From Bdellovibrionota bacterium (lineage in GTDB: Bacteria > Bdellovibrionota_C > UBA2361 > OMII01), in assembly GCA_044356215.1 (NCBI GenBank), contig JBIKWQ010000021.1, positions 1 through 44,857 of the forward strand: a DNA stretch of 44,857 nucleotides, in the 5' to 3' direction. Both the position numbers and the translations under genes were made by a program. The notes under the pieces were generated by a model, which was not told where the DNA came from, did no database searches, and saw nothing but the letters and a program-made list of their open reading frames with translations. This document shows, in pieces, positions 3,483 to 44,857 of this stretch; the stretch's first letter is position 1; every line of letters begins with the position of its first letter.

Positions 3483-4880
3483 TTAGAAGTTAATCGGTCT
3501 TCCAAGCGCCAAGGCCATCGCCTCCATCACCGACTCAGAGAGAGTTGGATGTGGATGGATGGTATCAACTACACTAGCCGCGATCCCTTCATGCGAGCGG
3601 ATTACAGCGGCCTCGGAAATTAGCTCAGTCGCCTCGGCGTGAATGATATGTACGCCAAGAACCTCGCCAACTTGGTCATCGATGATCACCTTAATAAAGC
3701 CATCCTGCTCGCCGATGGCGATAGCTTTCCCAATAGCTTGGAAAGGGATCTTTCCAACCCTGTATTTAATGCCACGCTCCTTAGCCGCGCGCTCGGTTAA
3801 CCCAACCGAGGCGACCTGTGGCTGACAATATGTACAGCCAGGGATGTTATCGTACTTCATTGGATGCTTGGATTTTCCAGCGGCAAATTCCGCCGCGACG
3901 ATTCCTTCATGGCTAGCCTTGTGAGCTAGAGCTGGTCCGCCCGCCACGTCACCAATCGCATAGTGATGTGGAATGTTGGTGCGCATCAATTCATCGACCT
4001 TGATGAAGCCACGGTTCATCTCGATACCTACCTTCTCTAGGCCGATATTTTCGGTATTAGGCGAGATTCCGATCGCTATTAGACAAGCATCTCCGCTCCA
4101 CTGCTCCTCTGAGGTCTTGCCCTTCAAAGTCGCGGATACGGTTTTGCCAGTTCTCTTGAGGTTCTGCACACCAGTGCCTGTCTTTATTGTCATGCCGTTT
4201 TTGGTGAAGATCTTCTCTAGGGTTTGAGCTACCTCTGTATCCTCTACCGGCAAGATCTGGTCTGCCATCTCGACAACGGTTACTTGAACGCCTAGAGAGT
4301 TAAAGAAATAAGCGAACTCGATACCGATTGCTCCCGCGCCGATAACTAATAACTTAGAGGGAGTGCGCTTATTCTCTAAGATCGTTCGCGATGTGTGAAT
4401 AACCTCTCCGTCGATATCAACTCCGGGGAACTGGCGAGGTCGAGCGCCAGTGGCGATGATGATATCTTTATAGGAATAGGTGGTAGTCTTCTTTGATGAG
4501 TCGGTGACAACGAGGGTGTTGCCCTTCTCAATAACACCGTTGCCCATGATCACCTCGACCTTATTCTTGCGCATAAGGTAGCTGACTCCTCCTGAGAGCT
4601 TGCTCGCAACGTCACGCGAACGGTCGATGATTTTCGGCATGTCAAAGCTTAGCTTGCCTGTCTCAAAGCCGAATGTGCTGGCGTGCTTCATGTCGTTCCA
4701 GAGCTGAGCTGAACGTAATAACGCCTTTGATGGGATGCATCCCCAGTTAAGGCACACGCCACCTAGAGCTTCACGCTCAATGATCGTTACCTGACGACCC
4801 AACTGAGAGGCCCGTATTGCCGCTACATATCCACCAGGTCCAGAACCTAAAATGATAAGATCTTTTGATTGAGTAGCCAT
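3483..4880 (-). CDS. lpdA: Dihydrolipoyl dehydrogenase
   Basis: GSGPGG FAD motif, GGVCLNWGCIPSK redox disulfide, GAGAIG NAD motif, HPHPTLSE catalytic motif. Confidence 0.97.
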   Translation of the reverse strand: MATQSKDLIILGSGPGGYVAAIRASQLGRQVTIIEREALGGVCLNWGCIPSKALLRSAQLWNDMKHASTFGFETGKLSFDMPKIIDRSRDVASKLSGGVSYLMRKNKVEVIMGNGVIEKGNTLVVTDSSKKTTTYSYKDIIIATGARPRQFPGVDIDGEVIHTSRTILENKRTPSKLLVIGAGAIGIEFAYFFNSLGVQVTVVEMADQILPVEDTEVAQTLEKIFTKNGMTIKTGTGVQNLKRTGKTVSATLKGKTSEEQWSGDACLIAIGISPNTENIGLEKVGIEMNRGFIKVDELMRTNIPHHYAIGDVAGGPALAHKASHEGIVAAEFAAGKSKHPMKYDNIPGCTYCQPQVASVGLTERAAKERGIKYRVGKIPFQAIGKAIAIGEQDGFIKVIIDDQVGEVLGVHIIHAEATELISEAAVIRSHEGIAASVVDTIHPHPTLSESVMEAMALALGRPINF

Positions 4881-4976: not shown

Positions 4977-5229
4977 AGGAAGGACGGCAAAACCCTCCCT
5001 ACTGCGAAAGCGGATCTTGAGCTGCTCCTCGAATTTTCGAGATGGGAAAAAATCCTCAATGTATCACAGGGGATACACCTCCGGCCTTCGCTAAAGCTAC
5101 GGCCGGCGAGGCTTTTGTCGGACCAGACGTAGCCTTGGCGTAGTCTGGTGCGGTTTTTTCCCATCTCGAAAATCGAATATCAACTCAACCTCCACTTTCT
5201 CGCTACGGGTAGGTTTTGCCGGCCTTCCC
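4977..5229. mobile_element. Palindromic MITE family A, copy 1 (carries a 69-bp nested insert)
   Basis: Ends GGAAGGACGGCAAAACC / GGTTTTGCCGGCCTTCC; homologous to 24695-24878 and 42623-42807; TG and TA flanks. Confidence 0.9.
5080..5148. repeat. 69-bp double-hairpin REP-like element nested in family A copy 1
   Basis: Hairpins CCGGCCTTCGCTAAAGCTACGGCCGG and CCAGACGTAGCCTTGGCGTAGTCTGG; absent from the other two family A copies. Confidence 0.85.
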
Positions 5230-5398
5230 TAAAAACGGCAGTTAAGGAGGACCAAAATGGTGCCGCTGGTTAAAAGCACAAGAGATTTTGAAATTTTCGG
5301 CGCGCAACCCTGGCACCGTCAGAGTGAGCACCGAAAATTCAAAAGCCGCAGTGATTTTAGCCAGATGCGCCGTTTTGGGACCCGCAACTACGTTTTTA
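5230..5398. mobile_element. Palindromic MITE-like element, family B
   Basis: TAAAAACG...CGTTTTTA ends; nested stems AAAATGGTGC/GCGCCGTTTT, CTGGTTAAAA/TTTTAGCCAG, TTTTGAAATTTTCGG/CCGAAAATTCAAAA; shares its TA with family A copy 1. Confidence 0.75.
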
Positions 5399-5563: not shown

Positions 5564-5726
5564 TAGGGCGTCGCAGTGTTTTTGGTAAGCTGCTGAGACA
5601 ATTAGTAAAATATTTTTTACCACAGAGGACGCAGAGGACACAGAGAAAACCCCATAATTGCCCATAAAATGGCCGTTCTCTGTGTCCTCTGCGTCCTCTG
5701 TGGTGATAAAGAACTGCGACGCCCTA
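5564..5726. mobile_element. MITE family C with 14-bp TIR and 9-bp target-site duplication
   Basis: TAGGGCGTCGCAGT...ACTGCGACGCCCTA; GTAATTGTT on both sides (5555-5563, 5727-5735); internal perfect IR ACCACAGAGGACGCAGAGGACACAGAGAA. Confidence 0.85.
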
Positions 5727-5836
5727 GTAATTGTTTTGGTTAGGATTTAGTTTAGTGGGGAGATTGGGTTCAAGCGATAAATAAACTTCGTTTGATTGTC
5801 GTATCAATTTATCCAAGGTTTTCTCTAGGTGGATCG

Positions 5837-8341
5837 ATGAAGGTAAAAAGGAGCCTAAATTCGTATTTAATCGGCACAAACATTATCCTTGGATTGTTCT
5901 CTTATTGCCTGATCATTTACATAATCGCTCTTCCAACGACCGCGTCTTACTCTTCTCTTCTAATCTCACCACAGCTAGCTTTGGGTCTAATTATGACCCT
6001 CTGCTCGATCTCCTCAGTGACGATGTCGATCTATATTTTGAAGAGAGAGGTTTTAAATCCGATCAGAAATTTAGCTTCCGTGATGAAGACGATCTCGGCG
6101 ACAAGCAATCTGAGTTTGCGTGTCCCAGGCAAGCACTCTGGTGATGTCGCTGATCTCGTGAACGCTATCAACGAGCTACTCGATACTACAGAGGCCGCCT
6201 ATCTCGATATGCTCAAAGCTCGCTTCGAGGTTGAGAGCGCCAACAAGGGCAAATCACTTTTTGTGGCCAAGGTATCACACGAGCTACGCACACCAATTCA
6301 CGGGATCACCGGCATGCTCAGGATCCTGCTAAAGCAAGAGACGGCTCCCGGGAAAAGGCAGTATATCCAGATGGCCCAAGATTCAGCGACATCCCTCCTT
6401 GAGACGATCAACGAGATCCTTGATTTCTCGAAGATGCAGAACGGAGAGCTCTCGCTTGAGAACGAGAGTTTTAGCTTGCGGCAAACAATCCGTTCCACCA
6501 TTGAACATTTAGTCCCACGCTTTGAGGAGAAGCCCGGGCTCACTCTGTGTTGGGATATTCAACCGGATGTTCCGGATCAAGTGATCGGAGACGCCGCGCG
6601 CGTGAGAAATATCTTGGTAAATCTCCTCGGTAACTCGTTTAAATTCAGCGAGAAAGGACACGTGAGGCTCGATGTTAGCACCTGCGCTTTAGCGGATGGA
6701 TCAGGTAGGGGGGTCAAATTTAGTGTTTCAGATACAGGTATAGGTATATCGGCTGGAAAACTAAGCTCAATATTTGATCCATTCACAACGGCAAATGAGG
6801 GGACAGCCCGACTCTACGCTGGGACTGGATTAGGTCTAGCAATCGTCAAACAAATAGCGGAGCGAATGGGCGGCTCGGTTTCCGTGGAATCCAATTTAGG
6901 TGTCGGATCTAACTTCTCCGTCGCAATCCCCTTAAAGATCGACGCCAGTGCGACTCAAACCGCGCCGTTTATCCCGAAACCTAGATCGGTAGCTGTAATC
7001 GCCACGCCTGGAGCCGACCAGGAAACTGTCGCCTCAGGCTTAGAGCGCTTTGGTTGTCATGTGGAAAGCTTATCAATCGAGGACCATTCTAGCTTCGACA
7101 AGCTCGCCCAATCCGGTTCACGATTTGATTTAGTGTACATCATTAAATGCTCAGACATTCTCTTTGACGAATTGACCCCCCTGATGAGAGTTGCGGCCCG
7201 AGATGATCGCTCGGTTATACTTTCCGTGCCGTCATCAGAAATAGCGTCAACCGATCGCTTAGCTCGTGGCGATAGATTCTTTGTGACCCTTAAACCTACC
7301 AGCGCTCTTGATCTTCTTTTAATAGCCGATGGGCAATTAGCCCCAAGCAACTCCACCCCTGAAACAGACGAAGCTACCGAGAAAGCCACTCGCAGGCTTA
7401 ATATACTCATAGCTGATGACGCCAAGACTAATCGAATCATTTTAAAGACACTTCTGGAGGAAGCTGGCCACTCAGTTGATGTTGTTGAGAACGGCCAGCA
7501 ATTACTTGAGCGGATCTCCTTTAAACCTGAACTAATAGCGGAGCAACGACGGTCGTACGATCTTGTGTTAACCGATATTCAAATGCCTGTAATGGACGGG
7601 CTAACAGCCGCTCAAAATTTTAGAGAGATAGAACGCAAATCCAACTCGTCCCACAAGCTACCTATAGTAGCCGTTACCTCCTACGCTTTTCCTGAGGAAT
7701 GCTCAAAGATGTTAGCCTCTGGCATCGATCACATACTGACTAAGCCGATAAATCCCAAACGCTTGACGCGCCTCCTGTCTCAGATCTCATACGACACAGA
7801 GCGCGAAAGCTCTAACGAGTTTAACTACCAAAGTGACAGCGATATAATATCAGAGCTCTGTGAGCTAACTGAGAATCTAGCCCTAAGAGTGAGCGAGCTT
7901 AATACCGAACTCGCCGAAATGATGCCCGCGGAAGCGATCTCGTCAATAGTTGATATTCAGGGGGTCTTTGAAAGGTCTGGTGATTCTCTGAAACGCACAG
8001 GACTAATCCTTTCGGGATTTATGGAATCGTTTAGAGAGCCGCTCAGTTATCTAGAGGAGGCGACCCTACCCGTTAGTGACCAGCAAACTTTTAGGAGGCA
8101 CGCCCATTCTCTTAAAGGATTACTACTTGATATTGGGGCACAAAACGCCGCGAATCTAGCGGCGGAGCTAGAATCAAAAGCTTTAAAGTCGCCTGATACT
8201 ATCACGACTGAAGAGATAACTAAGTTAGGATGCGCGACGCGCGAAGCCGCGACAGTAATAAACGAAATACTAGGCGCCCTACCATCTCTTGAGGTATTCT
8301 CGGCCTTGCCAGCGCTTGATGAGGCGCTGGCGATACATTAA
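5837..8341 (+). CDS. Membrane-bound hybrid sensor histidine kinase (HAMP-HisKA-HATPase-degenerate REC-REC-Hpt)
   Basis: Two TM segments; H-box SHELRTP; N-box NLLGNSFKF; DTGIG and GTGLGL; receiver ADD...LTDIQMPVMDG...KP; Hpt HAHSLKG; ATG 5837 preferred over TTG 5792. Confidence 0.93.
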   Translation: MKVKRSLNSYLIGTNIILGLFSYCLIIYIIALPTTASYSSLLISPQLALGLIMTLCSISSVTMSIYILKREVLNPIRNLASVMKTISATSNLSLRVPGKHSGDVADLVNAINELLDTTEAAYLDMLKARFEVESANKGKSLFVAKVSHELRTPIHGITGMLRILLKQETAPGKRQYIQMAQDSATSLLETINEILDFSKMQNGELSLENESFSLRQTIRSTIEHLVPRFEEKPGLTLCWDIQPDVPDQVIGDAARVRNILVNLLGNSFKFSEKGHVRLDVSTCALADGSGRGVKFSVSDTGIGISAGKLSSIFDPFTTANEGTARLYAGTGLGLAIVKQIAERMGGSVSVESNLGVGSNFSVAIPLKIDASATQTAPFIPKPRSVAVIATPGADQETVASGLERFGCHVESLSIEDHSSFDKLAQSGSRFDLVYIIKCSDILFDELTPLMRVAARDDRSVILSVPSSEIASTDRLARGDRFFVTLKPTSALDLLLIADGQLAPSNSTPETDEATEKATRRLNILIADDAKTNRIILKTLLEEAGHSVDVVENGQQLLERISFKPELIAEQRRSYDLVLTDIQMPVMDGLTAAQNFREIERKSNSSHKLPIVAVTSYAFPEECSKMLASGIDHILTKPINPKRLTRLLSQISYDTERESSNEFNYQSDSDIISELCELTENLALRVSELNTELAEMMPAEAISSIVDIQGVFERSGDSLKRTGLILSGFMESFREPLSYLEEATLPVSDQQTFRRHAHSLKGLLLDIGAQNAANLAAELESKALKSPDTITTEEITKLGCATREAATVINEILGALPSLEVFSALPALDEALAIH

Positions 8342-22437: not shown

Positions 22438-23064
22438 ATGAACAAGCAACGTGTCATTTCGATTGTGGCCATACTGTGCCTGGCTCAGTTGGCGATAATC
22501 ATCTCAAAGCAGGCAGAGGATAAGAATTCAGAGCTTGGCCGATTAGGAGAGCAGATCTCTCAATCTGCATCCCGGGTTGGAGATCTACTCACACCTTCAC
22601 GTGCGCGCCAGCAAGGCAACGTAATTCCACCGGCAGATACGATTCTAAAAGGTTCTTCAGCAAACGGATCCAAGGACCGCGCGCTACCGCCCAACAAAGC
22701 TTCGCGGCAAGCGCCAACTCGCGACCCATTTGTTCCCTTCTTCTCGGTAAAAGGTGGTCCAAAAGAAACTGACCAAGCTAATCCGCTTACCTCATACGAC
22801 CTATCTGAGCTAAGAGTTGTCGCGATCGTGCAAAGCTCTCAGGGGACAACTTCAGCCTCAGTTGAGACCAAAGACGGCAAGAGCTTTATTGTAAAGAATG
22901 GTACTAAGGTCGGCGCTTACGGAGGAACGGTCTCAAACATCTCGGCAACTACTATTTATATCGAGGAGCCTAGTAGCTCTCTGATTGGAGAGTCAACCAA
23001 AGCCACGCGGGAACTCTCGCTTAAGACCGCACAACTACCGAGTGGAATAGCGAATCAAAAATAG
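22438..23064 (+). CDS. pilP: PilP-like pilus assembly protein
   Basis: N-terminal anchor; RDPFVPF motif followed by PLTSYDLSELRVVAIV...IVKNGTKVG...I PilP beta domain. Confidence 0.7.
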   Translation: MNKQRVISIVAILCLAQLAIIISKQAEDKNSELGRLGEQISQSASRVGDLLTPSRARQQGNVIPPADTILKGSSANGSKDRALPPNKASRQAPTRDPFVPFFSVKGGPKETDQANPLTSYDLSELRVVAIVQSSQGTTSASVETKDGKSFIVKNGTKVGAYGGTVSNISATTIYIEEPSSSLIGESTKATRELSLKTAQLPSGIANQK

Positions 23065-23088
23065 TGCGTAGGTATTCAGTAACGCGCT

Positions 23089-23337
23089 TTATCGCGAACG
23101 CCGATTCATTCTCTCAGCGCAATCATTCCATGGCCCGCTCATACAGTTCATGGAATTGATTCCATCATCGATCACAGCGTGTCTGAATGTATGCGTGCGA
23201 ACCTTAACCCAGGAGCTATCAGCGCGAGGATAAGCGAAAAACCCCACAGCGGCGAAGAGCGCCACGACTCCCAGAGAGGCTCCGATAGCGACGTTTTTAC
23301 GTCTTACAGGTGACGACACACTACGACTAACTTCCAT
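23089..23337 (-). CDS. Small single-TM hypothetical protein
   Basis: 82 aa; GGGGAG SD; one hydrophobic helix; two C-terminal Cys. Confidence 0.55.
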   Translation of the reverse strand: MEVSRSVSSPVRRKNVAIGASLGVVALFAAVGFFAYPRADSSWVKVRTHTFRHAVIDDGINSMNCMSGPWNDCAERMNRRSR

Positions 23338-23571
23338 ACAACTCCCCCCGATTTACTCTGCTAATTTCCATGAAGCCTTAGCGCTTAAGCTGGTACAGAT
23401 TTGCGTAGCTCGGCGAAAATAATGCACAGGCACTATCCACCGTAACTTCACTCAAAACCTAATCAGCGCAGCCGTTTAATCTGGACTTACTAGCTAGTAT
23501 CGCGCGCATGAACCAGGCATACTAACGTGGCAGCAATTTGTGGGCCGGTAGCGCCTATACGAGATTAAACT

Positions 23572-23964
23572 ATGGATAGCTCTCTCCTCGCTTTTCATCA
23601 CGTAGCGATAATCGCCAGCGATTATAATCGCTCGAAAATTTTCTATATGAACGCCCTAGGATTCTCCGTACTGGCCGAAAACTACCGAGAGGATCGTGGG
23701 TCTTATAAATTAGATCTAATTGGGGCTGGTAATATGCGTCTTGAGATATTCTCATTCCCCGATTCTCCGCCGCGTGTGAGTCGCCCCGAGGCGTGCGGAT
23801 TACGACACCTCGCCTTTCGTGTCGCTAATTTAGAGAAAGAGGTCGCCCGACTAAAAGAGCTCGGCGTATCTGTTGAGCCAACGCGAATAGATGAATATAC
23901 CGGAAAAAAATTCGCCTTTTTTGCTGATCCGGATGGATTACCGTTGGAACTCTACGAGGAGTAG
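23572..23964 (+). CDS. gloA2: VOC family glyoxalase-like protein (YaeR type)
   Basis: HHVAIIASDY, SYKLDL, RVSRPEACGLRHLAF, DPDGLPLELYE. Confidence 0.9.
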   Translation: MDSSLLAFHHVAIIASDYNRSKIFYMNALGFSVLAENYREDRGSYKLDLIGAGNMRLEIFSFPDSPPRVSRPEACGLRHLAFRVANLEKEVARLKELGVSVEPTRIDEYTGKKFAFFADPDGLPLELYEE

Positions 23965-24012
23965 GCCTCAGTAATCAGGGGCTTAATTCGCCTCTATAAA
24001 ACAACAGCCGCC

Positions 24013-25050
24013 CTACCACAACAAAGCTAATAACCCGACATACATAATCAGAGTTCCAACAATTCGTCGGCCTCTGTTCTTCTCATTAAACAACTTGCCC
24101 CCAGCAACGACAGTAAAGATCATCGACATACGCATAATCCCAACGACCACATGAGCTGGCAAGGTCGTCAGAGCTACCATCTTCGCCACCATAAATCCGG
24201 TTTCAAAAAAGCCACGTAGAAAAAATGACCCCGCATTTGAGGTCAGATCAACCCTAGCTGAAGGGACACGAAACAGCGCCGGTAACGTAAGGAGTGCGGC
24301 GCATACTGTAACCGAGAACGCCGACGTGACAGCCCCTGCTTGACCGACCGCAAGACGATCAAGCGCGCTGTTGAGCGCGAAGGCCAGAGACCCGATAAGC
24401 GCATAAATCACGGCCACAGGTTGCGCGACTTTTCCCGTTGTCCGGTCGCGTTTCACAAGCACCAAACCTCCCAGGACTATAAGTACAACCCCAAGCACCT
24501 CAGAGCGATGAATTACATCACCTGTGATAAATGGGGAGATGATGGTCAAAAAAAGAGGCGACAACGAGAGCAGTCCGCTTACAAGCGATACATCCCCTTT
24601 TTCAAACGCGCGCATCTTGCACCCCTCAGCGCACACATCCGATATACCACGCATAAACACGAGGGCAAGAAACGTTTGTGAGAGCGAGCCACTAGGGAAG
24701 CGAGGCAAAACCTTCCCGTAGCGAGAAAGTGGAGGTTGAGTTGATATTCGAGTTTCGTGATGAGAAAAAACCGCAGATGTATCCGCTGAGATACATTGAG
24801 GATTTTTTCTCGTCGCGAAATTCGAAGAGCAGCTCAAGATCCGCTTTCGCAGCAGGGAGGGGTTTTGCCTCGCTTCCCTCGGTTCCCCGTACAAGTAAAG
24901 GGCTGCCAAGATTATCGCATAGAACGGCAACGCAAAAAGAAATGAGGCAAAGGTAGAGATATCTGGATTGACCTTACTGGCAACGGATTTGCTCACGAGG
25001 TCTTTTGCAGTGGCCGCGCAGGCGGCTAGTAGGGTAGCTATGATTCCCAT
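24013..25050 (-). CDS. EamA/DMT family transporter with an in-frame 62-aa MITE-derived insert
   Basis: About 10 TM segments in two repeats (AFEKGDVSLVSGLLSLSPLF; LFNEK); 283 aa once the insert is removed. Confidence 0.88.
   Translation of the reverse strand: MGIIATLLAACAATAKDLVSKSVASKVNPDISTFASFLFALPFYAIILAALYLYGEPREARQNPSLLRKRILSCSSNFATRKNPQCISADTSAVFSHHETRISTQPPLSRYGKVLPRFPSGSLSQTFLALVFMRGISDVCAEGCKMRAFEKGDVSLVSGLLSLSPLFLTIISPFITGDVIHRSEVLGVVLIVLGGLVLVKRDRTTGKVAQPVAVIYALIGSLAFALNSALDRLAVGQAGAVTSAFSVTVCAALLTLPALFRVPSARVDLTSNAGSFFLRGFFETGFMVAKMVALTTLPAHVVVGIMRMSMIFTVVAGGKLFNEKNRGRRIVGTLIMYVGLLALLW
24695..24878. mobile_element. Palindromic MITE family A, copy 2 (intragenic, in frame, inverted relative to copies 1 and 3)
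   Basis: GGGAAGCGAGGCAAAACC / GGTTTTGCCTCGCTTCCC TIR; TA and TC flanks; 184 + 2 = 186 nt = 62 codons. Confidence 0.92.
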
Positions 25051-25115
25051 GGGAGATGGACGCTATCATGATCGCATTTTTAATGAAAATAAAGCGGCGC
25101 CAATCTGATTAATCG

Positions 25116-25330
25116 TCAGGATATTAATTCCAACTCTCTCATCCGCCCTGAAATCTGCTCGCGAGCGGATGGGCTTGCGGGCACTAGCGGAAGACGAACC
25201 TGACTCGATCCGAACCCCAATAACTCCGTGCCATATTTAACAGGGGATGGGCTCGTCTCGCAGAAGAGCGCCTCACGAAGCGGTTGTAGCGCTAGGGTTA
25301 TCTGCTGCGCTCTCTGAATATCATCCTTCG
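25116..25330 (-). pseudogene. C-terminal fragment of dihydrodipicolinate synthase (dapA-like)
   Basis: LQPLREALFCETSPSPVKY...VRLPLVP is the DapA C-terminus; the N-terminal ~220 aa are absent. Confidence 0.75.
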
Positions 25331-25680
25331 TGCAATTGGGCGCTGGCCACCACACCTACACTTTCAGCTAATGCTAGATCTTCTCGGTAACGTCGGAGAC
25401 TTTCCCGGTGTATGCACTCCTAATAGCCGCGAACTGTATGAGCTTGCATGCCCAAGCCCGTTGCTGCTTCTTAACGGTGATGGCTCACTTGATCAAAGCC
25501 CTCTTGGCGATCTCGAAACTTAAATTAAAAAACTCCCCCTCCCATATTGTTGACCTACTCGCCAACACAAGGCGCGGACGCCTCTCCTCCCCCGAGCGCC
25601 AGATCCTAGTTGGTCTATTCGGCATGACTCGCGAAAGCATGTGGATTAAGTGGTAGACCCCCACCTAGCGCGCTGTCTGT

Positions 25681-25908
25681 GAGAAGGCTATTGAGAGTTT
25701 ATTTGACGATGACGAGGAAGGTCTAAAACAACTAAACCGAAAGTTATTCGATAAAATTAATTCCAGTGGCAAGCTTTATATGACCCACACAGTGCTATCA
25801 GGACGCTACACCCTGAGGCTCTCGATTGGACAGACAACTACTACAAGAGATCATGTGCGAGTGGCTCTCGAGGAGATCATGAGCGTTGCGAGAGGGGTTA
25901 GGACTTAA
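25681..25908 (+). pseudogene. C-terminal fragment of a group II PLP-dependent (aromatic L-amino acid) decarboxylase
   Basis: LNRKLFDKINSSGKLYMTHTVLSGRYTLRLSIGQTTTTRDHV...*; two in-frame TAG stops just upstream; not in the ORF track. Confidence 0.7.
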
Positions 25909-25918
25909 TTTAGGCCAG

Positions 25919-26014
25919 GCAGAGGACACAGAGACTCTCCATAATTGCCAATAAAATGGCCTATTCCCTGCGTCATCTGCGCCTTCTGTGGTGAAAAAGA
26001 ACTGCGACTCCCTA
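25919..26014. mobile_element. Decayed partial copy of MITE family C (right part)
   Basis: GCAGAGGACACAGAG...CCATAATTGCC-ATAAAATGGCC...CTGTGGTGA-AAAGAACTGCGAC-CCCTA aligns to about 5630-5726. Confidence 0.8.
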
Positions 26015-26092
26015 TCCTAAGCACCAATTTGCTTACCTATTTAGTCCCGCATATACTTCTTAATAGCCGTTAACATATCCTGAGGACCCTAT

Positions 26093-26995
26093 ATGTCAGT
26101 CACATTTAATAACGCATCCGTTGACTTAAGCTCACTTTATTCAGATCCCTCGGCTAATGCTCTTGCTTTGTTTTTTAACTTTGCCAGTGGCAGATGTTAC
26201 CATGCGGCAGATCCTTTACTTGATCAGCTGCAGGTTAATGAACCACAGAAAAGTTGGACCGGCCACTCCTGGGTAACAGTCAACAGATTCGGATTTGAGA
26301 CAGCTTCGCTCGGAACGAATTGGGCCGTGGATTCTTTTGTAAAAACTCTAGATGATAAATCATCTGTGCTGGATATCGGAGCCGGATATGGAGCTATATC
26401 AAAAGCCGCTATCAAGTCTGGAGCCAAAGTCGTCAGCAATGACCTCGCTCTGGAACACTTACTATGGCTGCGGGGTCAAGTAGATGTAGAAGAAAAAACT
26501 CGACTTTATTTAAATACCGGACGTTTCCCAGATCTTGATATTGCGCCTGAATCACTAACTCACATCTCAGCCCATCGTGTCTTTCATTTCCTTTCCGGCT
26601 CGGAACTGGAGCTAGGGTTGGCAAACTGCTTCAAATGGCTTAAGCCTGGCGGAATGTTCTTGGGTGTAGCTATGTCAGCGACACATGTCCGCTTTCGCGA
26701 TGCTTTTTATCCTGAATATGAACAAAGAAAAGATTCGGGAGGGCGCTGGCCAGGTGAGTGGTTAGACGTTGCCACCCACTTACCAGAGCAACTACACGCT
26801 CTGCCCGACAAACTACATGTTTTTACCCCCGATAAACTAGCTGATGAGGTCACAAAGGCGGGTTTCACAATTACTCAATCCAACTTTATTTCCCTACAAC
26901 AGTTTGGAAAGTCTGATGAGGGCAGAGATGGGAAGGAAGCCGTTGGCTTCATCGCCTTCAAGGTCCCTGATCCGGCCGCTTCCACACGTGTATGA
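26093..26995 (+). CDS. Class I SAM-dependent methyltransferase
   Basis: VLDIGAGYG motif I; VFHF; WLKPGG. Confidence 0.88.
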   Translation: MSVTFNNASVDLSSLYSDPSANALALFFNFASGRCYHAADPLLDQLQVNEPQKSWTGHSWVTVNRFGFETASLGTNWAVDSFVKTLDDKSSVLDIGAGYGAISKAAIKSGAKVVSNDLALEHLLWLRGQVDVEEKTRLYLNTGRFPDLDIAPESLTHISAHRVFHFLSGSELELGLANCFKWLKPGGMFLGVAMSATHVRFRDAFYPEYEQRKDSGGRWPGEWLDVATHLPEQLHALPDKLHVFTPDKLADEVTKAGFTITQSNFISLQQFGKSDEGRDGKEAVGFIAFKVPDPAASTRV

Positions 26996-40858: not shown

Positions 40859-41689
40859 ATGCGCTTTGGCGATTACTCAGTTAGATTAATACTTTTTGGA
40901 ACCTTCCGATTAGACGGCGGGAGTATGTTTGGATCAGTGCCAAAAAACATCTGGAGTAAGAGTATCGCTGCGGACTCAGATAACTGCATACCTTTGGCTT
41001 GCCGTTCCCTTCTTCTGGAGAACGATGAACGAAAAATATTGATAGATGTGGGGGCTGGCGACAAGTGGAGTGACAAGCTACGCCAGATCTATGCTGTGGA
41101 GCTGGCCCATCACTCAACGCTGGGTTTTAAGCGGGATGAAATCACCGATGTTGTATTAACTCACCTTCATTTTGATCACGCTGGTGGTATCACGTACCTC
41201 GCTCCAAACGGCGAGCTTAAACTCACGTATCCAAACGCCCAAATTCATCTACAGACCGCTAATTGGGAGCGCGCCTTAAATCCAACACCTAAAGACCGCG
41301 CTAGCTATCTTCCTGAGAGCATAGATCCTCTTAAATCGGCCAATTTAAATCTCTGTGATGGAACGCTAGAGGTTCTACCAAACCTTTATGTGCACCGTGT
41401 TGATGGACATACGCCAGGCCAACAATGGATTGAGATCGGTGACGCGCAAGACCCGAATAGTCCTAAGCTATTCTTTCCGACCGACTTGATACCAACCAGG
41501 CACCATGTTTCGATCCCCTTTCACATGGGCTATGACGTCTGCGCTGATACTATTATGAGGGAGAAATTGGCGTTTCTTGAGCGCGCGGAGGCCCTGAACG
41601 CCACTGTGTGCTTTCAACACGATATCGATGTTTCTTTAGTTAAAATTAGACGTAACGACAAAGGCGGCTTCGCGGCGGTTGAAATATAG
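40859..41689 (+). CDS. MBL-fold metallo-hydrolase (YtnP-like)
   Basis: LDGGSMFGSVPK, THLHFDHAGG, GHTPG, MGYD. Confidence 0.92.
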   Translation: MRFGDYSVRLILFGTFRLDGGSMFGSVPKNIWSKSIAADSDNCIPLACRSLLLENDERKILIDVGAGDKWSDKLRQIYAVELAHHSTLGFKRDEITDVVLTHLHFDHAGGITYLAPNGELKLTYPNAQIHLQTANWERALNPTPKDRASYLPESIDPLKSANLNLCDGTLEVLPNLYVHRVDGHTPGQQWIEIGDAQDPNSPKLFFPTDLIPTRHHVSIPFHMGYDVCADTIMREKLAFLERAEALNATVCFQHDIDVSLVKIRRNDKGGFAAVEI

Positions 41690-41750
41690 AATCCACCTCC
41701 CATTCCGTAGCATCCTAAATATCCGTATAACCGGTCTTACGGCATCCCAA

Positions 41751-42362
41751 ATGAGAACCATTTCAAGATTGATAAAATCACTTCATCTACAAGCGATCTT
41801 TGTCGCTTCCCTAGTTGCTAGCTGCGGCGGGGGCGGGGGCGGGGGCGGCGGTGGTAGCGACTCAAATTATGCCGGTAATATCGCCATAGATATAGAGCGT
41901 GATCACATTGACTCGGGAGATCTCAACAATATCAATATTGAAGTTGTTGGTCTTAATCCAGATGGATCAATCCTAAAGATTAGACTCTCGAAATCTCTTA
42001 GCCTAGTGCGCGGTACGCCTCTACTATTCGCGGGAAGAGATGAGGAGCGACAGATCTCGGTGGATGAGAAAGTGAGCACTGAAAATGAAAACTTCTTAGT
42101 ATTTTTTCTTTATCCACAAGACGCAATTAATGGCGATTTTGTGTCGTTATCTTTTAAAGTCAAAGGGATGTCCGCGGATAAGCGCGGATTTATCGAAGTT
42201 GATCTAGACAATAACGATCCTAGCGTCTCTGATAAAAGCGAATTCGATCCTAACGCGCCACGGTTTACAGCGAAGGAGCGTAGAAGTATCTATGTTGATA
42301 CTGATACCTCTGAGCCAACTCCGACACCTACGCCGTCTGGGACTGAGACGCCCAGCAATTAG
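41751..42362 (+). CDS. Lipoprotein with poly-Gly tether and Pro/Thr tail
   Basis: Lipobox VASC followed by a Gly run; ATG 41751 preferred over TTG 41679. Confidence 0.75.
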   Translation: MRTISRLIKSLHLQAIFVASLVASCGGGGGGGGGGSDSNYAGNIAIDIERDHIDSGDLNNINIEVVGLNPDGSILKIRLSKSLSLVRGTPLLFAGRDEERQISVDEKVSTENENFLVFFLYPQDAINGDFVSLSFKVKGMSADKRGFIEVDLDNNDPSVSDKSEFDPNAPRFTAKERRSIYVDTDTSEPTPTPTPSGTETPSN

Positions 42363-42574: not shown

Positions 42575-42622
42575 GGATCTATCGCCGCTTAGTCATGCCT
42601 CAAGATAATAGTGTCCACGTTA

Positions 42623-42807
42623 GGGAAGGCCGGCAAAACCCCTCCCTACTGCGAAAGCGGATCTTGAGGTGCTCTTCGAGTTTTCGAGATGGGAAAAAAT
42701 CCTCAATGTATCACAGGGGATACACTTGCGGTTTTTTCCCATCTCAAAAATCGAATATCAACTCAACCTCCACTTTCTCGTTACGGGTAGGTTTTGCCGG
42801 CCTTCCT
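42623..42807. mobile_element. Palindromic MITE family A, copy 3 (intergenic, 185 bp)
   Basis: TA-GGGAAGGCCGGCAAAACC...GGTTTTGCCGGCCTTCCT-TA. Confidence 0.92.
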
Positions 42808-42904
42808 TAGCTTCTGACAATTACTTTAGGCTGACTCATCGAGCCGCAGCTCCTAATGAGCCTCTAGTGTGGCATTCTAAACAATCGGGAGCTATCATGA
42901 CGGC

Positions 42905-43759
42905 ATGCCGCCTATATCATTCACCAGATCGCACATCACATTCGCCACCAACCACTCCAAGTCTGTGGCCGCAAGGGACACGTTTAAGGAGATTCTCAGC
43001 TCCGAGGTCACGGAACTAACTATCGACTCGGATCGTCTTGGAACATTCTCTGGCGAGGTTGAGAGACCTGGCTCTATGCTAGACGCACTTAGGAGCAAGG
43101 TAGCCCTGGCGCGGGAGTTAACGCGCGAAAGATTTATACTAGCTAGTGAGGGAAGTTTTAGCTCGGCCGGCGGCTTTGGCCTAATTGTCCAAAATATTGA
43201 GCTATTAATGCTAAGCGATCTAGTCACAGGAGCTGAGATTGTGGAGCAAAGAGTCACATATGAAACTAACTACGCCACGGAGTTTATCAAGAACTTAAGT
43301 GACTTGGAGAAGTTTTTAGTTCGCATATCTTTTGGTACTCACGCCTTGGTTTTATATCCTGATAAGGTTTCACCTAAACAACACGTATCAAAAGGCATCG
43401 TTGACCTAGCGCAGGCGCGGAAAATTTTAGAGGATTACATAAGGCTATCACCTACTCATTCCGTCATGGCGATGAGCGATATGCGAGCCCACGTTAACCC
43501 GACCCGTATGACGGCCATAAGAGAGTGTTGTAAGTTGCTTGCTAGGCGGCTGGCTAATCAATGTCCAGCGTGTGGAAGCGGCGGATTTGGTATAGTAGCG
43601 ACAGTTCCGGGACTTCCCTGCGAGGATTGCGGCGCCCCTACCAGTTTAGCTTTAGCGGAGAAGCATGCTTGCCCCTTCTGCTCCGTCACTGAGGAATATC
43701 CAAGGCAGGATGGCAGGAAATACGCGGAAGCATCTTCTTGTCAGTGGTGTAATCCATAA
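42905..43759 (+). CDS. DUF6671 family protein with Cys-rich C-terminus
   Basis: ATNHSK, DSDRLGTFSGEVER, ASEGSF, DMRAHVNPTRM, CPACG...GLPCEDC...C..CNP. Confidence 0.8.
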   Translation: MPPISFTRSHITFATNHSKSVAARDTFKEILSSEVTELTIDSDRLGTFSGEVERPGSMLDALRSKVALARELTRERFILASEGSFSSAGGFGLIVQNIELLMLSDLVTGAEIVEQRVTYETNYATEFIKNLSDLEKFLVRISFGTHALVLYPDKVSPKQHVSKGIVDLAQARKILEDYIRLSPTHSVMAMSDMRAHVNPTRMTAIRECCKLLARRLANQCPACGSGGFGIVATVPGLPCEDCGAPTSLALAEKHACPFCSVTEEYPRQDGRKYAEASSCQWCNP

Positions 43760-44502: not shown

Positions 44503-44578
44503 TGGTGGGCGCTGCAGGGATCGAACCTACGACATTCAGCTTGTAAGGCTGACGCTCTACCAACTGAGCTAAGCGCCC
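44503..44578 (-). tRNA. tRNA-Val (anticodon TAC), CCA encoded
   Basis: GGGCGCT/AGCGCCC acceptor stem, TCAGC-CTTACAA-GCTGA anticodon arm, GTAGG-TTCGATC-CCTGC T arm, ACCA end. Confidence 0.96.
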
Positions 44579-44857
44579 GAAATCTTGTTCGTCATTCAAC
44601 CCATTCGGGAGAGCTGAATGTCGTTTTGGTCTCAATGCTCGCTAGCTCGCATTGAGCGTTTGTTAGGCGGCTACTACGGTCCTTCGCTTCGCTACGTACC
44701 GTCTAAGCCACCTCATTCAGCTTGTAAGGCTGACGCCCCTCACACCCTAAAACACGGGCAACTGAGCTAAGCGCCCGAAATCTTGTTCGTCATTCAACCC
44801 ATTCGGGAGAGCTGAATGTCGTTTTGGTCTCAATGCTCGCTAGCTCGCATTGAGCGT
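44533..44857 (-). repeat. 198-bp-period repeat containing a degenerate 5' half of tRNA-Val
   Basis: 44561-44659 is identical to 44759-44857; anticodon arm 44533-44555 is repeated at 44714-44736. Confidence 0.85.

Follow-up and report, generated by a model that had tools for sequence, protein, structure and literature searches.

How a transporter gene can take up a palindromic mobile element among its codons and still be read from end to end is the question raised by contig JBIKWQ010000021.1 of a Bdellovibrionota bacterium (assembly GCA_044356215.1). The window considered here is the whole of the analysed stretch, 44,857 nt, and corresponds to contig C84 of the genome that carries it (G000; 3.24 Mb, 131 contigs). 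Textbooks treat palindromic elements that sit in frame in genes as a curiosity of Rickettsia. In this window, an open reading frame (ORF) on the minus strand encodes a transporter whose product matched the Pfam family EamA in two stretches (73.4 bits against a cut-off of 28.2; 2.9e-20), and an insert of 62 codons lies in the loop between its second and third helices. We found that this insert is a miniature inverted-repeat transposable element (MITE), that is, a non-autonomous DNA transposon present in many copies, with terminal inverted repeats (TIRs) and target-site duplications but lacking its own transposase gene. With a probability of roughly 60%, we consider that a MITE of the IS5 type entered the EamA gene, that its entry was tolerated because the copy belonged to a sublineage with a stop-free length divisible by three, and that it has persisted as a passenger without function.

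The insertion in the EamA gene

The features on which the argument rests are as follows (positions in the window).

24013–25050, minus strand: ORF of the host gene, a ten-helix EamA/DMT transporter; 345 aa as it stands, 283 aa once the insert is removed
24696–24877, no strand assigned: MITE body, a 182-nt palindrome; read on the minus strand together with the target duplications, it gives residues 58–119
24692–24695, no strand assigned: one copy of the target-site duplication, CTAG, lying downstream with respect to the direction of the gene
24878–24881, no strand assigned: second copy of the duplication, now CTCG; on the gene strand CCG replaces CCT, which is silent at Pro57
24696–24712, plus strand: left TIR, GGAAGCGAGGCAAAACC, defined by copy alignments
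24861–24877, minus strand: right TIR, the reverse complement of the left one
24712–24714, minus strand: codon AAG (Lys113), which is TAG in standard copies and CAG in the copies on contigs C9, C18 and C32
24815–24820, no strand assigned: site of a 1-nt deletion relative to standard copies, seen in alignments; the insert is 186 instead of 187 nt, and other copies have an extra A behind 24817

The net gain of the gene is 186 nt or 62 codons, made up of the 182-nt body and the 4-bp duplication. The original prediction, made from the letters of the window, had described 184 bp plus a duplicated dinucleotide; the total of 186 nt stood, whereas the duplication proved to be a 4-bp YTAR sequence and the body 182 nt. 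We had also first read the duplication as TA, as in elements of the IS630 or mariner type, and alignment gave the 4-bp YTAR instead. The stop-free peptide of 62 aa quoted in the prediction was recovered as residues 58–119, with 11 Lys/Arg and 3 Asp/Glu residues and a net charge of +8. At the nucleotide level, the segment forms a long imperfect palindrome with arms at 24694–24783 and 24790–24879 (90 nt, 76% complementary), and the RNA fold of this palindrome was predicted at −102.4 kcal/mol (z = −11.4), with none of 200 shuffled sequences folding equally well.

A search of 31 related genomes for orthologues recovered 15 EamA loci. The segment was absent from all 14 loci that cover the insertion site, and the 15th (L035) was cut before the site. 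The closest genome orthologue (L032, 85%–89% identical) reads YGE-PGSTLSQ at this position, and the orthologues of the transporter range from 272 to 288 aa. In the protein database, two empty alleles of 283 aa were found, namely P0001 (...LYLYGEPSGSLSQTF, with GEPSGSLSQTF at the site) and P0002 (...GEPIGSLSRAF), while in the three longer relatives that were read (P0014, P0016 and P0025), the extra length was N-terminal only. A metagenome scan likewise returned three contigs with an uninterrupted gene of 849 nt (283 codons). In contig L063, which is 93%–96% identical to the window, the site reads GAA CCT AGT GGC TCG with an intact CTAG, the state expected after removal of the element and one copy of the duplication. 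Thus, a palindromic mobile element sitting in frame in an EamA gene, the 283-aa protein expected on its removal and the empty CTAG site expected in orthologues were all found as originally predicted, and positions 24692–24881 represent an insertion event in the EamA gene. As a separate observation, contig L064, compared with window positions 22500–26600, had an identity of 99.0% in 1670 nt on the upstream side of the site and of 92.3% on the downstream side. This drop suggests a recombination breakpoint at or near the insertion site.

Could a repeat copy have been wrongly joined into the gene by the assembler? Many contigs of G000 end in this repeat, and the unmatched duplications of at least three copies (on C49, on C54 and at C16:76943) suggest swapped flanks. 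In the EamA gene, however, both flanks come from the same gene. Contigs of four lake-water runs (X1–X4, which may share one sampling campaign and one of which may be the source of the assembly) were aligned to positions 24300–25200, and both junctions were recovered without a mismatch in independent runs: the left one by contigs covering 24300–24733 in X1, X2 and X3 and 24532–24733 in X4, and the right one by contigs covering 24850–25200 in X1 and X2. The interior of the element was also matched exactly, by X4 unitigs at 24722–24775 and 24753–24851, the latter of which holds the 1-nt deletion together with a copy-specific base. In X1–X4, no contig joined the two flanks directly and none spanned the whole element, and contigs can hide a minor allele. 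The filled site is genuine and not an assembly error, an explanation that we regard as barely conceivable.

The element family and its frame-preserving sublineage

A profile of the copies, run with nhmmer, identified 54 complete copies in G000 and 62 partial matches, mostly at contig ends. The complete copies comprised 30 short ones (body of 182–183 nt) and 24 long ones (ca. 250 nt, with ca. 70 extra central bases). Both ends carry 17-nt TIRs of the form GGAAG(G/C)..GGCAAAACC. The flanking tetramers were CTAG, CTAA, TTAG or TTAA (YTAR) in 96 of 108 cases and formed identical pairs around 35 of the 54 copies. Empty sites were seen in relatives for three insertions, namely those in the EamA gene and in a lipoprotein gene and that in the protein P0121, where the G000 orthologue is the empty one (both described below). 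The start of the terminal repeat, GGAAGG, is one that we take to be IS5-like. Together, the TIRs and the 4-bp YTAR duplications point to a MITE of the IS5 type, so that the family would not be uncharacterised as first proposed. YTAR is the 4-bp target duplication of IS5 (PMC5009759). Insertions of the MITE are mostly intergenic, a trait shared with the IS5 family. Of the 18 other genomes sampled in the genus, 13 have the element, and one of 12 genomes representing other families of the order has it weakly. When genome contigs were scanned for exact 21-mer matches, three stretches only were returned, in two records of metagenome-assembled genomes.

The usual form of the element is not suited to coding sequences. 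Among the short copies, 23 of 30 add 187 nt, so the single additional nucleotide that had been noted in an intergenic copy is in fact the rule. Two further copies in the window represent the short and the long form.

42621–42809, minus strand: standard short copy adding 187 nt, between the ORFs at 41679–42362 and 42905–43759
4977–5231, minus strand: long-form copy with ca. 70 nt extra in the centre, between the divergent ORFs at 3483–4880 (minus) and 5792–8341 (plus)

The added length is a multiple of three in 19 of the 54 copies, and a length divisible by three coincides with a stop-free reading across duplication, element and duplication in only three (C84:24693, which is the copy in the EamA gene, C18:468 and C9:42987). 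Each of these three is free of stops in one of six combinations of orientation and phase. On the opposite strand, an open frame begins right after the TAG or TAA stop of the duplication and the other two phases contain stops, which makes the element unreadable in that orientation. The opposite-strand frame pointed out in the original prediction does exist, but it comes straight after an in-frame TAG supplied by the duplication and cannot be read through; the proposed tolerance of the element in either orientation was not borne out, and a stop-free length divisible by three is not a property of the family.

The three compatible copies share the 1-nt deletion (TTCGAA-TTTCG), which switches the reading path between two frames of the element, and several other derived bases. 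The TAG codon of standard copies is gone in all three, being CAG in the C9 and C18 copies and AAG in the EamA copy; the copy on C32 also has CAG in place of TAG, yet without the deletion. Since both changes, the deletion and the TAG loss, also occur in copies elsewhere in the genome, they predate the EamA insertion and are not later repairs, and in combination they leave one of the six orientation/phase combinations free of stops.

This sublineage was found in frame in further genes. The C9 copy is intergenic. The C18 copy is of the long form, adds 279 nt and follows the fifth codon of a lipoprotein gene in frame, within the signal peptide (MQKSF, then 93 codons, then RGYLSLLVTSGLLFAGC), whereas the lipoprotein orthologues examined have an ordinary short signal peptide and carry the insert in none of seven cases. 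Moreover, a comparison of the 62-residue peptide with longer proteins gave five matches among 15 candidates. One of these, P0121 (a lytic transglycosylase of 420 aa from another genome, with a C-terminal SLT domain), carries in a linker an insert 94% identical to that of EamA, with Pro-Lys on both sides encoded by the duplication, and its G000 orthologue (61% identical, 357 codons) has no insert. Another, the 518-aa glycosyltransferase P0110, likewise from a genome other than G000, begins with MPK, runs through two copies in tandem and continues with KRILILHP, and its G000 orthologue aligns from residue 120 only. The other three matches are short proteins without domains. The four in-frame cases share orientation and phase, reading (P)(K/R/S)-EARQNPSLLRK...LPRFP, and the insert always occupies a loop, linker or N-terminal region. 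The claim that the element creates new protein sequence is thus strengthened by three further genes with the same peptide in frame.

At the C18 locus (L096, C18:468–762), the lipoprotein gene has the look of an efflux adaptor. Towards its end, the element contains a TTG that could act as a new start and yield a normal signal peptide (MPRSPRGYLSLLVTSGLLFAGC). The G000 lipoprotein is also without the ca. 70–100 His-rich residues that follow the lipobox in orthologues.

Within G000, six copies are intragenic, of which two are in frame and four, representing three events, are disruptive. A copy adding 188 nt at C16:73572 splits a Peripla_BP_6 gene, the downstream piece of which starts from profile position 166 of 343 (orthologue frames of 366–428 codons vs. 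242 in G000). The copy at C54:14143 interrupts a Polysacc_synt gene at profile position 166 of 274, and the frame there has 284 codons compared with 355–420 in orthologues. At C49:13742, a DUF4269 gene is cut at profile position 89 of 151, and what, by the C-terminal pattern of this family, looks like the missing part lies next to the copy at C16:76943. The junctions at C49:13742 and C16:76943 have the same unusual duplication, CTTG, which suggests that these two copies are halves of one insertion, the flanks of which were swapped by recombination between copies or by the assembler; a third CTTG end occurs at C54:14143. The Pfam-supported N-terminal part and the putative C-terminal part of the DUF4269 gene lie on different contigs, each abutting a MITE (C49:13352–13930, locus L020; C16:76720–77131, locus L009). 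The copies at C48:13298 and C51:16087 were not counted as intragenic; frames span both sites after excision, but neither Pfam nor other evidence supports a gene there. The original prediction had named two observations that would speak against it. The segment in orthologues free of the repeat was found in none (0 of 14), and of the second, intragenic copies that mostly disrupt their genes in combination with a lack of expression, the first half was indeed found (4 of 6).

These data bear on whether the whole family is built for life in genes, entering them in either orientation with a length always divisible by three and free of stops, in the manner of Rickettsia palindromic elements (RPEs). 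At least one frame without a stop runs through the element in 27 of the 30 short copies, and four in-frame cases are known. The prevailing addition of 187 nt, the restriction of compatibility to three of 54 copies and to a single orientation and phase, the four disruptive copies and the lack of any open frame in 22 of the 24 long copies nevertheless make this highly improbable. In addition, the 35 genomes of the genus yielded no further in-frame intragenic case among the five stop-free candidates examined: the copy in G011:C63 runs into a 188-codon frame of non-genic appearance, those in G037:C153 and G041:C188 lie 19 codons upstream of the real start of the downstream gene and 11 codons upstream of a gene start, respectively, and those in G042:C10 and G017:C100 lie in short frames. 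The copies in G009:C156, G003:C180 and G018:C126 were set aside because of stops or short frames. This census is biased downward, because the public gene caller cut even the EamA product to 200 residues. Judging from the copies compared, the in-frame property is that of an RPE-like sublineage and not of an RPE-like family.

The MITE would have been mobilised in trans by a transposase of the IS5 type, and a parent insertion sequence (IS) was sought. In G000, no full-length IS combining the ends of the MITE with an IS5-type DDE transposase was found. The element around the sole PF01609 gene of this genome has different, unrelated ends; searches of G000 with PF13586 and PF13359 gave zero matches; and PF13340 matched a remnant within a 458-codon frame on contig C64, the surroundings of which are free of MITE ends. 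DUF4096 is the N-terminal domain of IS5-type transposases, and this frame (C64:2907–4280, locus L167) ends in a DUF4096 piece and resembles an unrelated gene fused to what is left of a transposase. Of 30 PF01609 loci in the 35 genomes of the genus (counting G000), L100 (G011:C374:7461–11090) was the only one with paired MITE-type ends. This candidate was rejected as the parent element, since its MITE-type ends enclose an IS with inner ends of its own, which indicates a nested insertion. At positions 1196–2704 of L100, a unit bounded by MITE-type ends and flanked by CTAG and TTAA contains the IS, which measures 1.3 kb and has a 397-aa PF01609 transposase and its own inverted ends. The absence of a parent IS is weak evidence, because repeats assemble poorly in these genomes.

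Several other repeats were noted. In G000, 104 further matches (up to three mismatches) to the two 17-nt end motifs lie outside the copies of the family, as pairs ca. 30–46 nt apart and as many solo ends (e.g., C5:76484–76529, C34:49702–49746, C46:9710–9755, C127:4568–4613 and C55:25275–25304), and other, smaller element families with the same ends as the MITE appear to be present. In the window, a 51-nt direct repeat (TTCTCTGTGTCCTCTGCG...) at 5676–5726 and 25964–26014 (86% identical) stands upstream of two ORFs and is a second repeat family, unrelated to the MITE. Near the end of the window, a tRNA-Val (TAC) at 44503–44578 (minus) is overlapped in its 5′ part by a perfect 99-nt direct repeat (44561–44659 and 44759–44857, 198 nt apart) that reaches the window end; probably, an array of tandem tRNA genes is truncated here where the contig stops.

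Consequences for the transporter

The course of events that we favour can be outlined as follows. A MITE of the IS5 type inserted at a CTAG in the part of the gene that encodes the helix 2–3 loop. The inserting copy came from a sublineage that had lost one base, thus adding 186 nt (62 codons) and not 187, and in which the internal TAG had become CAG or AAG; the gene stayed open because the copy belonged to a sublineage with both changes. A survival filter may then have operated, in which standard copies entering genes break them, and stop-free copies divisible by three and in the right phase persist in a loop, a linker or an N-terminal tail. The predicted product is a normal ten-helix transporter with a basic, unstructured loop of 62 residues, the insert presumably being a translated passenger without a function of its own.

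An AlphaFold model built with 14 orthologues is consistent with such a product. It has ten helices, with a predicted local distance difference test score (pLDDT) mostly > 90 in the core, a mean of 81.6 and a predicted template modelling score of 0.77. Residues 58–120 had pLDDT values of 33–54, save for a weak helix at 64–78. The insert is therefore without a predicted fold, and the model is silent on whether the transporter works. An alternative, raised in the original prediction for the RNA level, is that the insert leaves the transcript or the protein as an intron or intein would, so that the mature protein has 283 aa. The strong hairpin would suit this, as would the fact that exact excision would restore the gene. 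However, no Rfam family reached its gathering score (sub-threshold plant microRNA hairpins only, such as MIR9486 with 45.5 bits vs. 100, and similar), Pfam returned nothing for residues 58–119, and the ends of the insert are transposon ends with a target duplication and not splice sites. We consider removal extremely improbable.

A more serious alternative is that the insertion killed the transporter, through a wrong topology or an unstable mRNA, so recently that too little time has passed for stops to appear. Across 15 aligned members of the family, the mean numbers of Lys/Arg were 1.1, 1.9, 3.7, 3.4 and 3.5 in loops 1–2, 3–4, 5–6, 7–8 and 9–10 and 0.07, 0.5, 1.1 and 0 in loops 2–3, 4–5, 6–7 and 8–9, giving a mean total of 13.6 in odd-numbered vs. 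1.7 in even-numbered loops. Under the positive-inside rule, loops rich in Lys/Arg lie inside, so the loop between helices 2 and 3 should face outward, and 11 extra Lys/Arg with a net charge of +8 at this place could disturb membrane insertion. EamA proteins with ten helices are typically oriented the other way round, and the rule constrains long loops less strictly. The very stable mRNA hairpin (−102 kcal/mol as predicted) could lower expression. The public gene call P0019 (24013–24615) kept only the last 200 residues of the transporter, starting at Met146. Furthermore, sister copies are 97% identical to the EamA copy and an empty allele is 99% identical upstream; the insertion is young, and the intact downstream frame consequently says little about selection. 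Other copies in G000 clearly break genes. These points weigh against a tolerated passenger, and that no matching transposase was found in G000 or at the PF01609 loci of the genus counts against the favoured course of events. A larger intragenic share of compatible copies (two of three vs. 4 of 51 others; hypergeometric tail of ca. 0.03) comes from a post hoc comparison of small counts and loses force on that account.

Two lines of evidence point away from a dead gene. The filled allele was assembled in four lake runs with no empty joint, although this is weak since contigs hide minor alleles. Four independent genes carry the sublineage in its sole open phase and in loops, linkers or N-terminal tails, a pattern that a filter of tolerated insertions fits better than random decay. 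Going by sequence, we would give somewhat better odds to a protein that is still made and at least partly working than to a young dead gene, and we hold the latter doubtful, though to be taken seriously.

Comparison with known palindromic elements

The behaviour of the sublineage in genes resembles that of the RPEs (Ogata et al. 2000, 2002), as summarised in the review PMC10969869. In both cases, a palindromic repeat of ca. 150–190 bp occurs in frame in unrelated genes, and the added peptide falls in loops or surface regions with the host frame left open. In contrast to the RPEs described there, only a sublineage of three copies out of 54 is compatible with coding, standard copies of the MITE break genes, and the MITE has clear TIRs and YTAR duplications. 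Its host is a member of the Bdellovibrionota, and the likeness to RPEs is one of behaviour in genes. The MITE also differs from the IS5 family in that no IS5-type transposase with its ends was found in G000 or at the PF01609 loci of the 35 genus genomes.

According to the same review, intragenic copies with occasional in-frame fusions occur among ERIC, large BOX, Coxiella QMITE1 and Anabaena MITEs, and such fusions are called “not unusual”, with RPEs as the extreme case (PMC10969869). The kind of event is therefore already known. Unlike in those cases, the two enabling mutations can here be read directly from sister copies. The added interest, as far as comparison of the copies allows, is that the step from a frame-breaking to a frame-preserving element is visible.

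A wider reading remains tentative. A frame-breaking MITE may, through two mutations (the base loss and TAG to CAG), have given rise to a 62-codon, RPE-like sublineage that spread between species of a freshwater genus of Bdellovibrionota and persists, translated, in the loops, linkers and N-terminal tails of functional proteins, namely the EamA transporter, the lipoprotein, the transglycosylase P0121 and the glycosyltransferase P0110. Because gene callers cut the host gene to 200 aa, in-frame insertions of MITEs are likely to be under-counted in protein databases. The filled and empty alleles of the four genes form natural pairs that can be compared for expression, topology and activity. To our knowledge, the origin of the in-frame palindromic elements of Rickettsia is unexplained. 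The present locus suggests a plausible route by which a gene-breaking MITE may become a cassette carried within genes, by losing just a single base and a single stop codon. If this is true, the sublineage in Bdellovibrionota would capture, in nature, the emergence of palindromic elements that invade proteins.

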